Notes: generated by a model not told the origin, from the sequence alone. DNA of 63,017 bases, filler included, from Collodictyon triciliatum (GCA_043381765.1; 10 parts of 10 records of this genome joined end to end with filler, not necessarily neighbours in it); one strand, 5' to 3'. Shown: positions 10,563 to 63,017, counted from the whole stretch's first letter. Translations and numbers: made by a program.

Positions 10563-11775
10563 ATGTACGCGCGCTGGAGAGTCAACAAACCAAAACTCAA
10601 AACCAAAATAGTGTCTCTGCCTTTGGAAATCAAACCATGCACTTCGGCGATGGCTGAACGACAACATAGCCCTTTTTTCGAGTCGTTGGATTTGATAAAA
10701 AGTGTGCATCATCCGTTCTTGTATAAATATAGTGCTGGCATAACTCCCTTGGTATTAATCATCTCTATTGTAGGCCACGAAGGCAAGAGAGGAAAACAAG
10801 ACAATCAAGATAATCATCAAATACGAGCGCAAGAACAAGCGCAAGAACAAGCACAAGAACAAGCACAAGCACAAGCATACTCATCCCCTGGCCAATGCCC
10901 TTCATATCATAATTTCGTTGAATCCACTGCACTCTTCGGCTGCCCTGTCAAAGATTCTTCCTCTGTAGCGGTCATCTCTGACGCAAGCACAGATTTTCCT
11001 TACCTGTTGTCGATTCCCTGGATCATCATGAATCCAGTCATTCACCAGAACATTCATTTCCCACAAACATCAATGTGCATAGTGTACCATACGCTTCCAT
11101 GTGAGTGATTTTATGCCCACTTTGCTCTGTAACGCAGGGGAGAAAATTTAAGTTGAAAAAAAAACGTGACTATTTGTGACATAAATTACATATATATATA
11201 TATAAATTGCTATTGAATAGTGCTTTATGATTTTTCTTTTTCTGATTCATCTGAATTATCATGGACCTGTAGCTGCATCACCATTATCACCAGTAACTTC
11301 TCTGTCGAACAAGCACGAACCCAGGGACGTGGCAGACGGATTCGTAGAGGCGCGAACAAGTCCCTCTGAGCCGCCCATGTTTGGTTTCGATACGTTAAGA
11401 CATCCATCGGCCATTAATGACTGTCATACAGGCTTTGATTACATCTCTTATGAACCAAAAAACGGTCAAAATCACCTGCGCAATCGTAATTCTCTATACG
11501 AGACTCATTCTTCTAGCCCATGCAACAGAAGTTATGTGCGCCCCTTTATTGAGTTTAGCAATCATGTCCGCCCCGCCGTTCGAAGGGCTTATCCATACGT
11601 CTCCAATTGCGACATGATGCGAATAATTGGAAAACTTTGGAGGAATATGTCAGAAAGCGAAAAGAATGTGTATCGGGCGGGTGACGTCATGGGGATTAGT
11701 AAGTGTGCAAACTTTATTGATCAGACTCAGGATGTTCCTCTATCAACACAGAGGAAAAAACTGTTGAAAAAATAA
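10563..11775 (+). CDS. HMG-box transcription factor, paralog 1 (exons 10563-11100, 11271-11775)
   Basis: A GTGAGT donor at 11101 and a TAG acceptor at 11270 keep the frame. C-terminal HMG box RSYVRPFIEFSNHVRPAVRRAYPYVSNCDMMRIIGKLWRNMSESEKNVY, then NFIDQT and a basic tail. Confidence 0.85.
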
Positions 11776-12874: not shown

Positions 12875-14243
12875 TCATTCTTTTACCCTGCGCCGACGCC
12901 TCTTTCTCTCACAAGCGATTGGTGTTTCTATGGTCTGATCGATAAAATTGATATTTCCTTCCGACTCTAGTGAACCCATGATGCGATATTTTTCCTTGTC
13001 TTGCTCTGGTAAATCTCTCCACAGTTGTCCGATTTTTCGCATCAACTCTTGGTTCGACAGAAAGGGGTGTGACCTTCTGACTGAGGGCCGGATAAAGTTG
13101 CTAAATTCCAAGAATGGCCGAATAAACTTCTTTCCTTGGAATGTATTCCTTGAGAGTCTTTCTGGGAAGGCGTGCTGCTCCTCATGAAATGTGAATTGTT
13201 GAGTGTCGCCTTCGTTTCTCTCAATATTAATTCTTTTTTTCCCTGTAGCATAGTCAAAGAAAACAGTATCCTCTATCGGGGGATTTAATGGAGATTTTTC
13301 ACGATTTATAAGGTTTGAATCCTCTCCAGACTTTGAATCCGCTATGAAAAATCCAATTATATGTATTAGATTCGATGAAAGAATAAAGTTTTATTTTGAA
13401 ATATTTTTATTTACAATTTCGAGGACAACCTAGATTGCGCATATAACAAAAAAAATAATGTTTTTTTCAACGGTTTCCCTAATGTCATTCAAAATATATA
13501 TAAAAAAAGAATTATATTTACTTACATGTCGTTTCCGGTAGAGATGTAGAAGTATTGCCCATTAAAGGATTTACTGAATCTTCTCTGAAGAAATCGCTAT
13601 TGTAAAATAGAAAATAATCGAATGCTTCAATTTGGTCGATATATCTAATATCTTCTTGGTCTGCTTCTGAGTTAAATGTATTCAGGTCATTCGCAGCCTC
13701 CGTATTTCCATGTGCGGTTTGAGTATTCGCTGATAGAGTGCGATTTTAGAATGTTATAAATTAATTAATTTCTTTGAACCAAAAAGTAAAAAATAACTCG
13801 GCAATCATAAGAAAATATGTAAAAGTATTTTGAGTCATACGTGTTAGAGATATGTATGCATCATACGCTGAGAAGGGATCGTGATCGATTTGCACCATGC
13901 CACGCTCGAATGGAATTGACGCGGGGGGTTTCTCATGAGCCAATACAGGGAAAAAATTCCTTGTAGGCATATTTGTGTCGGGAATGATATGCTGGAACTT
14001 AGTTACCTGAGAACTGTTCTCATTGTTTGGGTTCCACACCTCAGACTCTGATTGGATATTAATTTCTGCTAATGCATTCATGTCATCTTGCTTACTCTCA
14101 TTATCAGAGTAAAAATAAGTAAGAGTATTATCAGGGAGAAACAGCATTTTCTTATGCTCAAGGGCTTCCTCCTCGACAGCAAAGGGGGTTTCGATGGCAG
14201 CAACCCGTTTCTTACTCTTGCGATACCTCCACGATACGTACAT
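12875..14243 (-). CDS. HMG-box transcription factor, paralog 2 (3 exons: ~14243-13841, ~13729-13526, ~13341-12875)
   Basis: Phase-1 GT-AG introns join MYVSWRYRKSKK... to KKFIRPFLEFSNFIRPSVRRSHPFLSNQELMRKIGQLWRDLPEQDKEKY (HMG box), then NFIDQT and RKRRRRR. Confidence 0.85.
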
Positions 14244-38247: not shown

Positions 38248-40392
38248 TCAATTGGAGTGTATGTCCTCCTCAACTTCGGGTTCATAGTTTACAAGATAGG
38301 GATTCGATACCATAACCCCCATCCGGTTTAGAGAGGATGAATGAATTGCCTGGTCATGAACTAGCGATTGAAATCCATTATAATATTTGTGTTTCTGAAA
38401 ACTATGCAGTTTCAATCCAATCTCGCTCATTTCAGAGGCTAGAACCTTTGCAAAATCCGCATCCCGAAGCCGCACCACCGACGACATTAGTGATGTGTAA
38501 ACGGCTTTTCCGTATTTTCTTTTTTGATTTTCCCGAAAAACGGCAAATTGCTTTCTGTAAACTTGCATGGCAACCTCGTCGTGACAGAGTTGGGACAATA
38601 GCTGTATATGAAGCACCACGGTGAGCGCATTTCCAGAGATGTTTTCCTGTTTCATCAAGCTGAATAGTTGAAGACCTATGGCGTGCTGGTCTAGATGGAA
38701 ACAGGTCGATAGGATAGAATTGCATACAGTAACAGGAACAGGAATCGACCTCTCCAAGGAAAGCGCAAGGATTTGAATGGACTCGTTTAAGAGTTTATGC
38801 CGCGACAGACATATAATAAGTGACTCATATACCTTTTCGGACCTGGGCAAGAGGTCATGCTGGGCATAGCTAAATGTTTTGTTTACGACATCCATGATGG
38901 AATCAGGTGCATTCAAAGGTAGCTGCATTTTTTCAAAAATTAGGCAGACTTGATGCGACGTTTCATAGCTTAATCTATCACGGATGCTCAACAAGTATTC
39001 TGGTTTATACGGGACTTGAGAGTTGTGGGCACTCTCTGAATTATTGTAGGATTTATCAATCGAATCCTTGGTAATAGATTTGATGCGGTGATTTGATTTG
39101 ATATCATTCATGGGCGTGAAGGAAATGCATAGCAAAATATGGCTCAAGCAAAATTCCTGGCTGAGCACCTCGCCTATATTCGGACTATTCTTCATATCAT
39201 TCATCAAGGAGAATCCCTGTGCCATCCGGTGTATTAAATGTGAGAATTGACCACTTGATGATAACGCTTTGATAAAGCTTCTGAATATGTCAACAGAATG
39301 CTCTCTGGTAATCTCGTCGTGAATGAAGTCTTGAAGCCCAGCGAGTATGTTGGGGGTTTGGGGGTTTCCAGATGCCTCCAGCAACATACATAGGCCTTGA
39401 ATAGTCAGGAACTGTCTATAATGTTTTGCTATCTCTAGTGCCCCAGCAAACTTCTTTTCTGCACAGAATGCATGAATGAAAATCTCGACCATATTCTTTT
39501 TATTTTCCGACTCTCCTTTTTCATAGTCATGGCCTCTACTCTTGGATAACTGTGATATTCCGCTGCTGTGGTTGCTGGTCCATGCTTCCAAAAACTCTAT
39601 TGCATACCGCCAATCGTCCACCCCAGCACAAACGTGCGCAAGAATCGAAAAAGTGGCATCATCTGGCTTCATCAGAGACGGGAAGCAGGAACGAAAGTAC
39701 TCCAAAGCTCGACGATACTGCCCTGACTGCTTGTATGCGTGCAATAAGGAGTGTGCGATGATTCTGCGCATGTCTTTGTAGGAGGACAGTGCGGTGTTTG
39801 GCTCCGTAACAGTATGTTCTTGAAGCAACTTCCGGGCAAGCAATTCCACCTGGCGATAATGACCCTGCCTTGCATAGAAGTGGAGGAAAGCATAGTAACG
39901 AGGCTGCACGCTTGTCTCGACAGGGCTTTGCATCAGATAGGTAAACAAGGAGTCCGCTTTCTCTGGCATGGCTCGAGTCAACTGCTGGATGGCTGCATCG
40001 TTGTCATCAGTCGCGAGTGAGGAAAGGTCATTTCTGCTTGATGGAAGTGTACGTTCATGAGAGTAGGCAGCGTCATGGGGCGGAGAAGTTGGGACTTCGG
40101 GGCTCTTTTCTGGGCGGCTGTCAAAGATTTGCTGGAGCCGCGGGAATATGGACGAAAGCTCCCCGTAAGTCTTTGGCAAATAGGAAGAGGAAGGGCTGCT
40201 TGAAGGGTTGTTTGGATCTGGCTTGAGGAGTGTCTTTGTGGAGAGGAATCGGGCAGCAGGCGAAAGCGCAACAAAAGTAGGCGGAGTCAACCAAGCCAAG
40301 TTTACAGAAGCTCGTCTTTGGCGTTTGTGGAGCGCAGACACAACACATCCTACTTGACGGCATGCCCGGGGTCCAAACATAGCCCACCCCAT
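38248..40392 (-). CDS. PPR-like helical-repeat protein, intronless, probable mitochondrial presequence
   Basis: ORF of ~714 aa with an R/S/L/A-rich N-terminus and degenerate PPR motifs (HSLLHAYKQSGQYRRALEYF..KPDDATFSILAHVC; VYESLIICLSR; VCNSILSTC..GLQLFSLMKQENI; VYTSLMSS). Confidence 0.8.
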   Translation of the reverse strand: MGWAMFGPRACRQVGCVVSALHKRQRRASVNLAWLTPPTFVALSPAARFLSTKTLLKPDPNNPSSSPSSSYLPKTYGELSSIFPRLQQIFDSRPEKSPEVPTSPPHDAAYSHERTLPSSRNDLSSLATDDNDAAIQQLTRAMPEKADSLFTYLMQSPVETSVQPRYYAFLHFYARQGHYRQVELLARKLLQEHTVTEPNTALSSYKDMRRIIAHSLLHAYKQSGQYRRALEYFRSCFPSLMKPDDATFSILAHVCAGVDDWRYAIEFLEAWTSNHSSGISQLSKSRGHDYEKGESENKKNMVEIFIHAFCAEKKFAGALEIAKHYRQFLTIQGLCMLLEASGNPQTPNILAGLQDFIHDEITREHSVDIFRSFIKALSSSGQFSHLIHRMAQGFSLMNDMKNSPNIGEVLSQEFCLSHILLCISFTPMNDIKSNHRIKSITKDSIDKSYNNSESAHNSQVPYKPEYLLSIRDRLSYETSHQVCLIFEKMQLPLNAPDSIMDVVNKTFSYAQHDLLPRSEKVYESLIICLSRHKLLNESIQILALSLERSIPVPVTVCNSILSTCFHLDQHAIGLQLFSLMKQENISGNALTVVLHIQLLSQLCHDEVAMQVYRKQFAVFRENQKRKYGKAVYTSLMSSVVRLRDADFAKVLASEMSEIGLKLHSFQKHKYYNGFQSLVHDQAIHSSSLNRMGVMVSNPYLVNYEPEVEEDIHSN

Positions 40393-40517
40393 CGACACAG
40401 CCTTGTTTGATAGGCAAGGAAGGTTATTTTTTTATTTTTTTGGTTTATGTTTGGTTTATGTTTTTTTTGTTTTTTGTTTTTTGTTTTTTGTTTTTTGTTT
40501 TTTGTTTTTTGTTTTTT

Positions 40518-59220: not shown

Positions 59221-59316
<96 letters not shown>

Positions 59317-59416: not shown

Positions 59417-59509
<93 letters not shown>

Positions 59510-59512
59510 GAA

Positions 59513-61075
59513 ATGAGAGATGATATGATGAGTTTTTATTTCTATGATTTTCGATTCCTTTTGTCCCGAGAAGAACGCTTTCCGTTGGTTGGACTATCTC
59601 ATGTATTACCGTACATGGCGAAGCAAATGTTAACAGCTTATCATAATAACATTAAGGAACATTTTGTAAAGAGGTTACTGCGCTTTATAAATAAAACGGT
59701 CCCTAAAGATGAGAATATTACAGAAGCTATTAAAAAAGCAAAGTTACGAAAGTTGAAAAAAAAATTCATCTCCAAGAATATCGAAATACCAGAGCAATAT
59801 AAAGAATGGACTAAAATACATTTGAATCATATCATTCCCAGCGATATCGTAAATGTTATCGAATATGATGCTAAAGCCGATTCAAAAAAGTACATTCCAT
59901 CTCTGATTTACATGAATCGCATTTTTGAGGACATTTGACCAAAAACTGTTTCAACCAATCTCTATAAGAACTAACAATATACCATGTCATATTACTCTAG
60001 ATACTACATGTTTGATAGGTCTATTAGTATTATTTGAAAAATATTATTAATGAAGAACATATCAGGATGCAAAGAGACATATGGGATTATTTCTTTGAAA
60101 TGAAGAAGAGGGTCTTTCATCAAAGAGACTACAATTTCAAATACATGATATAAACAGACAACTTGGTGGTGTCATTATTGTTTGAAAAGAAAGATATTTC
60201 AAATCCAAAAATCAATTATATAATCAAAGCACCAATAATATCTTCATATAGATGAACTTTCCGAAGAGCAGTTATCTTTATTAGCGACAAAAAAAAAATA
60301 TAGTTGGAGTGGACGCAGGCAAGTTTAATTTTGTTTGCATGGTGGATGAGACAGGTAAGAAATTATGTTACACGGCACACCAAATAAGACATGATAACAA
60401 ATCTCTTTAAAGTCACAAAATACTCTTGCGCGAGAGAAAAGAGAAAAGTACAATGCTTCAGGGGTATGCATGGCAACAGGTTTACAAAGTGCTATTTCTT
60501 TTGGTCACATGACTGTTGAAGAGAATCGGCAGTTTGAGACATCAAGAGCATCTTTAATCGATTTTGAGACAGAACTGAGTAAACATTATTCATGCACGCT
60601 CGATTATGAACAATTTCGAAAATATATACCTATGAAATCAAGTTACCAGATAGAATTATCCAGATTTTATTAACACGTAACTTTTCGGAAGATGAGATGG
60701 AGACAGTATGTTGATACAAAAAGAATTGAACAATTGTTTATGGACCAAATCGAAAAGGCATTTGGCAAGGATGTTGTACTGGCTTATGGAGACTGGAGCA
60801 GAAAATCTCAGATGAAAAATTTTATGCCAATAATCGGAAGAGGATTACGAAAAATACTATCCAAACGTTTTGAAACAGTTAGTGTAGATGTATTTAGAAC
60901 CTCCAAGATGTGCTGTAACCACGAAAAAGAACTGGAATATATGAAACTGAGAGGAAATAGGAAAAAAGTGTATAGATGTCTCATGTGTAAAGAACACAAT
61001 CGCTCATAGAGTAAACAAAGTGTATTCTTGACAGGGGACTTTAACAGCGCCAAAAATATACTCAACAAAGTTCTT
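59513..61075 (+). pseudogene. Fanzor1 (eukaryotic TnpB-related RuvC RNA-guided endonuclease), decayed and 5'-truncated
   Basis: Ordered motifs across stops and frameshifts: MLTAYHNNIKEHF, KLFQPISIRTNNIPCHITLDT, YMI*TDNLVVSLLF, RuvC-I IVGVDAGK (D at 60312), FRKMRWRQY, LAYGDWS, RuvC-II VDVFRTSKMC, zinc-finger cysteines and RuvC-III GDFNSAKNIL (D at 61037). Confidence 0.9.
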
Positions 61076-61264
61076 TTAATCCTTCAAAAAAAATGCATGC
61101 ACCTCTTTTTTTTTTTTTTTTTATAATAAAAAAAAAAAACTAATAAACCTTTCCNNNNNNNNNNNNNNNNNNNNNNNNNNNNNNNNNNNNNNNNNNNNTT
61201 AATTAATTAANNNNNNNNNNNNNNNNNNNNNNNNNNNNNNNNNNNNNNNNNNNNTTTTTTCTAT

Positions 61265-61302
<38 letters not shown>

Positions 61303-61990: not shown

Positions 61991-62920
61991 CTATCGCGGA
62001 GTCAGAGAACCCGGTTGATAGGACTGAATTCTGGGCGACGACACCTGGAATGGTGCTGCACTAGCAATACTTCTCACTACGGTGACATTCGATACGGATT
62101 TTGAAGTGGCTAAGCCTTGTTGTAATGGGCTCGATGGATAAGCAAACTAGGGATAAGTGTGTTTAAGAAGTAAGATAATATAATTATAATGGCTATTTGT
62201 TTAATTAATTAATTTCGTTAAAAAAATAAGAAAAATAAGAAAAATAAGAAAAGAATAAAAATAGGGCTTCCTATCGCCTCAGTAGGCAGATAAATTGCCT
62301 AAAAATGTTAAGATAGATGAAAACAACCACGGGGACTGATTTGATGTTTTGTTCTGTGTGCGATTAACCTGGTGATATCCAAGTGTCGGAGTTGCGGGCT
62401 GGCCTCTTGGGGATGGTGGCTGGTACTGGGGTGTTTGTTGGTAGGCACTATTATATTGCGGAACTGATAAAGAGCTGCTTGATGAAATTTTTGGTAGCTG
62501 CTGATGAGAGTGATGGTATCGACTCTGTGATGGAGTTTTCGATAGCTGTGAAGGTAGATTGGGCTGGTACGGATTAGCAGGACTATGCGGAGTCCCTAAA
62601 CCTGCCTCTAGACGGGCCGATGCTGGTCTCTGTGATCCGTACATCGGAGAATTGGGCGGATACAGGTTATGTTGGTGGGCGTGTCCTTCCATAGATGCAC
62701 TGGAGGAGCTTTGTTGTGAATGGGTCCTTGTGTGGCCAGATGCCGCAACTCGCTCCACACCGCGCGGTGTAAGCGGCTTCGGCTGGTAAGGCGATTCATC
62801 CCGGGGAGGATTGTGGTGTTGTGGTTGGGATATGGACCTTCCATGCCCTGATGATGCATAGTGTTCTATTCTGGGTGATGAAGTCGCCTGATGAAGTACA
62901 TACCGAGAGTGCGTTTCAGC

Positions 62921-63017
<97 letters not shown>
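61991..63017 (-). CDS. C-terminal part of a polyQ and S/P/Q-rich low-complexity protein (2 exons)
   Basis: (CAA)n polyQ runs in frame into an open exon ending at a donor near 62369; the last exon reads FAYPSSPLQQ...GSLTPR*. Confidence 0.65.

Follow-up and report, generated by a model that had tools for sequence, protein, structure and literature searches.

Tc1/mariner elements that carry a Fanzor1 gene have been described from giant viruses and protists, with PGv-1, PUl-1 and PUl-4 as types (Bao & Jurka 2013, PMC3627910). The same paper reports families with many copies, including CMe-1A of Cyanidioschyzon merolae, with about 150 copies that are about 80% identical to their consensus, and SPu-1, with 17 copies, 9 of which are intact; up to 122 Fanzor copies per genome are given elsewhere (Jiang et al. 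2023, PMC10530073). According to these accounts, decayed multi-copy Fanzor1 families have been described since 2013 (PMC3627910), and Fanzor1 in giant viruses is also already published. Here we analyze a decayed copy of such a gene, the Fanzor1 remnant, in a 63,017-base stretch of DNA labelled Collodictyon triciliatum (GCA_043381765.1). We refer to this whole stretch as the window.

An initial annotation, made from the sequence alone, had called the locus a decayed Fanzor1, and our structure searches bear this out. We consider it likely that the contig with the remnant is a fragment of one dead copy of a Fanzor1 DNA transposon, that this copy is one of many in a diverged repeat family of a eukaryotic genome, and that the source organism of the family also occurs in freshwater-type metagenomes. 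Judged by sequence, it represents a sublineage of the Fanzor1 clade named DUF8286 in Pfam. The homology, the lesions, the multiple copies and the missing RNA block are shown by the data; we infer residence in the host genome and an origin by transfer between giant viruses and a host.

Structure and decay of the reading frame

As the reference for aligning the remnant we used P0002, an intact environmental relative of 648 amino acids (aa). In a three-frame alignment the remnant (59510-61108, plus strand) comprises about 525 codons in three frames, collinear with residues 99-627 of P0002 and without rearrangement; 317 of 521 aligned positions (61%) are identical. A tblastn search of the window with P0002 covered residues 99-620 collinearly, and the C-terminal 243 codons of the remnant match its relatives at E 4e-80, far beyond chance. 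Stop-to-stop open reading frames (ORFs) spanning 59507-61126 are spread over the three frames. The initial annotation had described one collinear frame of roughly 500 codons with Fanzor1 motifs, and every motif that it named is found in the translations: HNNIKEHF (about 59637-59660), IPCHITLDT, MI*TD (the asterisk being a stop), GVDAG, YGDWS, VDVFRTSKMC and GDFNSAKNI.

The stops and frameshifts first reported as "several" are present, in higher number than that word conveys. Alignment to P0002 calls for seven frameshift moves (near 59936, 60045, 60077, 60223, 60299, 60447 and 61085), and five stops lie in frame (TAA at 60151, 60236, 60408 and 60671; TAG at 61007). About 98 N-terminal and 20 C-terminal codons are gone, as are everything upstream, the guide-RNA scaffold and the element end. 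A working nuclease is expected to have one open frame of about 600 aa or more, which the remnant does not have. Introns were ruled out as the source of the frame changes, since there is no intron-sized insertion relative to P0002. Changes between copies span all transition types, and no bias resembling repeat-induced point mutation (RIP) was seen in them. The features of the remnant are as follows, with the basis of each in brackets.

59510..59935, plus strand: longest open piece, 142 codons, holding HNNIKEHF; REC-side N-terminal half (ORFs; matches to GtFz1 and PpFz1 chains)
60151..60153, plus strand: in-frame TAA within the MI-x-TD motif, a sense codon in other copies (P0002 alignment, run contigs)
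60303..60320, plus strand: RuvC-I, GVDAG, with Asp codon 60312-60314 kept and Ala for the Pro of DPG (DPG in six of six intact relatives)
60408..60410, plus strand: in-frame TAA adjoining an Arg that is invariant in six intact relatives (alignments)
60449..60550, plus strand: insertion of about 34 codons after RuvC-I, a marker of the sublineage (alignment)
60671..60673, plus strand: in-frame TAA (P0002 alignment)
60887..60922, plus strand: RuvC-II and first zinc-finger half (DVFRTSKMCCNH), with Val GTA 60890-60892 for the catalytic Glu and His 60920-60922 for the second Cys
60983..61009, plus strand: second zinc-finger half, CLMCKEH, with His 60995-60997 for Cys, then TAG 61007-61009 (alignments)
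61034..61060, plus strand: RuvC-III, GDFNSAKNI, with Asp codon 61037-61039 kept and Gly for the Arg of RD (alignments)

The Fanzor1 signature, as given in the preprint of Yoon et al. (bioRxiv 10.1101/2023.08.09.552727), is DPG..E-x6-[CH]xxC..C..RD-x5-N, and its C-terminally shifted catalytic Glu (10.1101/2023.08.09.552727) coincides with the position that the initial annotation had assigned to this residue. The signature is matched by 24 of 28 rows, including all six of the closest intact relatives, and the read-through of the remnant does not match it. Two earlier observations hold at the codon level: both catalytic Asp codons survive (60312-60314 and 61037-61039), and the RuvC-II Glu codon is GTA (60890-60892), giving Val at a position where all relatives have Glu. 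In total four signature changes separate the remnant from the six intact relatives, which are unchanged: DPG to DAG, the catalytic Glu to Val, two zinc-binding Cys to His, and RD to GD. The Pro-to-Ala change in DPG, the Arg-to-Gly change in RD and the two Cys-to-His changes go beyond the initial annotation.

Both Cys-to-His replacements are the identical two-letter codon change, and each falls on the second place of its CxxC pair; all other copies seen have Cys. A paired change of this kind looks unlikely under plain neutral decay (about 1e-4 by rough estimate). The line leading to the remnant may once have carried a Cys2His2-type finger for a time, as opposed to random decay.

We assigned the family with a profile built from six intact relatives (alignment A1, 617 positions), which was searched against the Protein Data Bank (PDB) at E values up to 1. 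All three distinct matches are Fanzor1 proteins: PpFz1 (9cf0, E 8.9e-52), SpuFz1 (8gkh, E 7.7e-49, covering profile positions 3-605 of 617) and GtFz1 (9cer, E 2.7e-40). The C-terminal 243 codons of the remnant match the same Fanzor1 chains exclusively (E 2.9e-8, 1.8e-6 and 2.5e-4), and its N-terminal 143 codons also match Fanzor1 chains exclusively, at E 2.5e-6 (GtFz1 chain residues 522-651) and 3.9e-3 (PpFz1 630-687). The initial annotation had proposed profile and structure searches against Fanzor1, Fanzor2 and TnpB; run on the relatives' profile and the unrepaired pieces of the remnant, these matched Fanzor1 chains alone.

In Pfam, eight pieces of the remnant gave sub-threshold matches only, namely OrfB_IS605 at 17.1 bits (cut-off 30.5) and Cas12f1-like_TNB at 14.6 bits (cut-off 26.3). 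The intact relatives are likewise below the Pfam cut-off for OrfB_IS605-type domains, and their precomputed family is PF26935, which has the Atlas name DUF8286. We rejected two other assignments: (i) a prokaryotic TnpB (IS200/IS605, IS607), because OrfB domains are below the curated cut-offs in the remnant and in the intact relatives; and (ii) Fanzor2, because no Fanzor2 or TnpB chain is among the PDB matches at E up to 1, and the relatives' partner is a DDE_3 transposase, not a serine recombinase. Based on the Fanzor1-only structure matches and the failed signature, the remnant descends from Fanzor1 without the features of a working one.

Relatives in giant viruses and the missing 3' block

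Relatives were collected in three ways: (i) an exhaustive protein search with the C-terminal part of the remnant; (ii) a scan of metagenome contigs; and (iii) a scan of IMG/VR, from which the best 80 of 330 relatives were taken. The protein search gave 1633 representatives at E<=1e-3, 629 at <=1e-10 and 14 at <=1e-30, and the metagenome scan gave 49 loci. Many of the best 80 of the 330 IMG/VR relatives are named as giant-virus metagenome-assembled genomes (MAGs), with contigs that reach 289 kb. The relatives have flanking genes of giant-virus type, which include an mRNA capping enzyme (L004), a D5-like primase-helicase (L012), a topoisomerase IA (L059) and an RNase III (L115). The viral relatives are 38-51% identical to the C-terminal half of the remnant.

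Environmental contigs of roughly 2.6 kb are the source of P0002 and of its 90% cluster, and the neighbour clusters of P0002 in the Atlas are 92-100% viral, with Nucleocytoviricota as the commonest phylum, and belong to DUF8286. Intact ORFs were found on environmental contigs only, at 61% identity or lower. Six proteins of at least 427 aa share words with the window, none of them sourced from NCBI. This gives weak grounds for holding that no intact copy has been predicted in a labelled genome; in the protein and run searches, no intact copy of the sublineage was found in a labelled organism.

We placed the remnant in a quick maximum-likelihood tree of 28 rows, made up of 15 locus proteins, six relatives, six distant outgroup representatives and the window, with X at the breaks. 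The 15 locus proteins are a non-redundant set (each less than 75% identical to one already kept) drawn from 101 full-length locus proteins. The remnant pairs with P0002 (SH-aLRT 100, stem 0.67) inside a clade of giant-virus and aquatic-metagenome sequences. The end branches are 0.48 for the remnant and 0.26 for P0002, nearly a twofold difference, and the longer branch of the remnant is what is expected of a copy no longer under constraint. The window, P0002, P0013, P0069 and P0102 have in common an insertion of about 34 residues, which none of the aligned giant-virus relatives has. We considered an intron at this place and ruled it out, since the insertion is open and protein-conserved in five diverged sequences.

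The giant-virus loci (L001-L129) reveal what surrounds the gene in intact relatives. A conserved 3' block of about 100 nucleotides (nt) follows the Fanzor gene, with its start also translated as the C-terminal tail of the protein, and ends in a near-invariant ...AAAGGTGTAA in 98 of 122 loci (alignment A2). Similarity among loci drops sharply after this terminal motif, mostly 40-100 nt past the stop codon. The last 35-40 nt of the block recur inverted upstream of the gene, so that the elements have inverted repeats of about 35-40 nt, ending ...GGTGTAA. We searched for the block by sequence profile, which matches 117 of 129 loci at E<=1e-3, and 60 of these 117 have more than one match. With a 12-letter motif the inverted upstream site was recovered for 56 of 98 loci; it lies at a distance of 401-437 nt in 28 of them and of 1120-1326 nt in 11. 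L003, L004 and L059 also have, upstream of the Fanzor gene, an ORF of about 340 aa that encodes DDE_3 and HTH_28 domains. Complete giant-virus elements come in two size classes: Fanzor-only elements, whose left repeat lies about 400-437 nt upstream (28 loci), and elements with a DDE_3+HTH_28 transposase (L003 2635-5952 is an example of a complete element). RNAalifold, applied to the gappy MAFFT alignment A2 of the 3' block, returned 0 pairs.

The initial annotation saw no omegaRNA or element end, and we agree. The best match of the 3' block profile in the window has E 6.6 and lies on another scaffold, there is no match on the remnant contig, and the terminal motif is absent from the window at up to 8 mismatches. 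The contig ends within the gene at either side and stops short of the place expected for the block and the element end. What had been taken for a scaffold end about 80 nt after the remnant is the linker at which contigs were joined, the contig itself running from 59417 to 61154. It is bounded by low-complexity sequence on both sides.

59417..59505, no strand: (TAA)n microsatellite at the contig start, with remnant homology beginning directly after it (sequence)
61097..61154, no strand: T and A runs up to the contig end (sequence)

The runs at 61097-61154 occupy the place where relatives have the C-terminal tail, the conserved 3' RNA block and the right inverted repeat. T runs of about 90 nt also stand at scaffold ends beside linkers (window 59226-59316 and 61260-61282). 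The assembly seems to break at homopolymers and microsatellites.

Other copies and the origin of the contig

We compared the window with four of 24 listed public runs, X1, X3, X4 and X8. The largest share of the window's sampled words in any listed run is 13%, and the metagenome runs have shares of 0.05-0.13. X8, the run with an organism label, comprises 43 million letters; whether it is RNA or DNA is only guessed, and no RNA data set is listed with the stretch. It yielded 282 contig pieces across 28 of 30 bins, of which 19 have a likeness of 99+%, 62 of 95-99%, 118 of 90-95% and 83 of <90%. These pieces give the picture of a diverged multi-copy repeat, and on a rough reading the variants number tens at least. 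One X8 contig (place 59532) runs on upstream into other, coding-like sequence.

Short predicted proteins from NCBI contigs of 513-629 bp (P0032, P0069 and P0077) represent further fragments of the family, and such fragments are also found on ENA, JGI and Logan contigs. Those on NCBI contigs are 71-77% identical to the window over the matched stretches. P0032 keeps the Glu, the Cys residues and the RD and has its start in the wrong frame, and P0077 is out of frame past the GDWS region; both are broken copies too.

Two kinds of evidence bear on the lesions themselves. Among the matches listed, no covering X8 contig shares the state of the window at two of the stops (10 contigs differ at 60151 and 6 at 61007), at either His codon (15 at 60920/60921 and 4 at 60995/60996) or at the Gly codon (12 at 61034). 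Small X8 indels at or near five of the seven frameshift places account for part of the depth. Most lesions thus seem private to this copy or to copies close to it. At 60151 one X1 contig also differs from the window, and the X3 contig agrees with it. Contigs of the freshwater-type metagenomes are closer: X3 has 0 differences over 59695-59845 and 2 over 60061-60211, and X4 has 0 over 60787-60937. Between them they contain the same stop at 60151, lack the same base near 60077-60079, and have both the Val codon and the His codon at 60920, so at least those lesions are real DNA and not assembly errors.

These data have to be set against other explanations of the contig. Its source could be a giant virus sequenced along with the organism, or a large endogenous insertion of giant-virus DNA, in which case the remnant would be a dead viral transposon copy. 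Such a case has been described for a Hydra contig, HMa-1 (Bao & Jurka 2013, PMC3627910), and several points count for it here and against a dead copy in a host repeat family: (i) the nearest relatives with known context are all viral, every one on a giant-virus contig; (ii) the contig holds no host flank that would tie it directly to a cellular chromosome; (iii) the GC content of the contig, 0.31, is closer to the viral ORF median of 0.29 than that of most other scaffolds (0.33-0.44); and (iv) the organism's run X8, its kind only guessed, may include the viruses of the organism. We nevertheless regard a viral source as unlikely. The 282 X8 pieces at 85-99% likeness, with broken copies on separate short contigs, are a better fit to a decaying genomic repeat; in the giant-virus loci retrieved here the Fanzor ORFs are open, at least 560 aa long in 101 of the 122 loci that match the window's protein; and the window and P0002 are set apart by a long branch and carry a 34-aa insertion of their own.

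It is a good deal less probable that the gene is intact in the organism and that its frameshifts and stops are assembly or sequencing errors in the contig of a collapsed repeat. The contig is short, with low-complexity sequence at both bounds, and A runs underlie two of the seven frameshift places (A10 at 60290-60299, A8 near 61085). A short contig from a high-copy repeat may also be a mosaic of copies with some chimeric lesions, independent confirmation coming only under X3 and X4, which is a further reservation about the single dead copy that we favor. Yet errors would not account for the stop at 60151, the state of 60077-60079, the Val codon and one His codon in independent metagenome contigs. 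Five of the seven frameshifts are outside long homopolymers, the lesions number 12 in addition to four altered signature residues, and the tree branch of the window is 0.48 against 0.26 for P0002. We rejected as hardly credible a reassigned code in which in-frame TAA and TAG would specify Gln or Glu. The five in-frame stops are indeed TAA or TAG in every case, with no TGA, and three of them align with Glu of P0002. However, seven frameshifts persist under any code, one TAA adjoins an invariant Arg, long ORFs on the other scaffolds are open in the standard code, and at two stop places other copies have ordinary sense codons, as simple nonsense mutation predicts. A dead copy from a diverged host repeat family thus stays our preferred reading of the contig.

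The rest of the window adds little on this point. It consists of ten unlinked scaffolds, seven of about 8.0 kb and three of 1.7-2.4 kb, separated by nine linkers of the form N44-TTAATTAATTAA-N44 (window 8040, 16172, 24303, 32433, 40559, 48681, 56801, 59317 and 61155). The Fanzor1 remnant is the sole feature of its contig of 1738 bp (window 59417-61154). With ten separate scaffolds in the window, the remnant has no genomic context, and adjacency across linkers is biologically meaningless. A tblastn search of all ten scaffolds with six relatives found no other copy of the family, with nothing below E 0.3 off the remnant contig. The other scaffolds are uninformative on the remnant contig because they are not physically linked to it. 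They encode generic eukaryotic domains (PPR, protein kinase, TPR, two HMG boxes and UDPGP). One scaffold has a pair of HMG-box ORFs within 2 kb (11221-11772, plus strand; 12878-13390, minus strand), and a long poly-Gln ORF of the CAA type spans 62279-63016 (minus strand). A single-exon PPR ORF of 727 codons spans 38251-40431 (minus strand); no homologue of it came up at E 1e-10, and in the Atlas it neighbours a mixture of fungi and plants. These ORFs hint at the kind of host. Scanning the window with Rfam and for tRNAs gave no match, nor did a search of a phage collection.

Comparison with known Fanzor1 systems

What Saito et al. 2023 (PMC10432273), Jiang et al. 2023 (PMC10530073) and Yoon et al. 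(10.1101/2023.08.09.552727) describe for characterised Fanzor1 and TnpB systems lets us infer how the ancestor of the family may have worked. Intact members of the clade appear to sit in Tc1/mariner-type elements of giant viruses, with inverted terminal repeats, a Fanzor1 of about 620 aa, the 3' block and sometimes a DDE transposase. The ancestor would have transcribed an RNA from the 3' block, past the right end of the element and into the flank. Guided by this RNA, a single RuvC site (Asp, shifted Glu, Asp) would then have cleaved double-stranded DNA that matched it. The remnant itself is incapable of any of this: it has no start, tail, RNA block or ends, its frame is broken, and its catalytic Glu is lost.

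Dead and free of context, the remnant is an ordinary kind of genomic fossil and of little weight alone. As a pointer it has modest value, since it shows that one labelled organism or more contains a sublineage of the giant-virus Fanzor1 clade in the form of a repeat with many diverged copies. This is relevant to the proposal, already in print, that Fanzors are spread among eukaryotes by viruses. We would put forward only tentatively that the sublineage is an undescribed, host-resident one, marked by the 34-residue insertion and, in the line of this copy, by a Cys2His2-type finger, which entered a freshwater eukaryote from a virus, reached tens of copies and may include intact members that carry a guide RNA. 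Open ORFs of 648 aa at 61% identity on environmental contigs bear on such members. If an intact member were found with its RNA, characterisation of a further natural RNA-guided nuclease would come within reach.

We compared the remnant with three sets of described systems. The solved Fanzor1 nucleases, SpuFz1 of Spizellomyces punctatus, PpFz1 of Parasitella parasitica and GtFz1 of Guillardia theta, have the same motif order, namely RuvC-I, the shifted Glu by the zinc finger, and RuvC-III. They are distant kin, which the remnant's own pieces reach only at E 3e-8 to 2.5e-6, and unlike them the remnant is not a working gene.

Elements of the PGv-1/PUl type, as far as their published description goes, are shared ground with the nearest relatives of the remnant, which resemble them in protein clade, giant-virus loci, inverted repeats, a DDE_3+HTH transposase in some, and a 3' block that ends at the repeat; the link is one of anatomy and published description, not of sequence comparison. 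In contrast, the remnant contig is without ends, transposase, 3' block or open frame, and the remnant and P0002 form a separate long branch with the 34-aa insertion. CMe-1A and SPu-1, as they have been reported, are similar in condition: the family of the remnant belongs to a different Fanzor1 lineage, and resembles them as a multi-copy, diverged and mostly broken family, probably likewise in a cellular genome.

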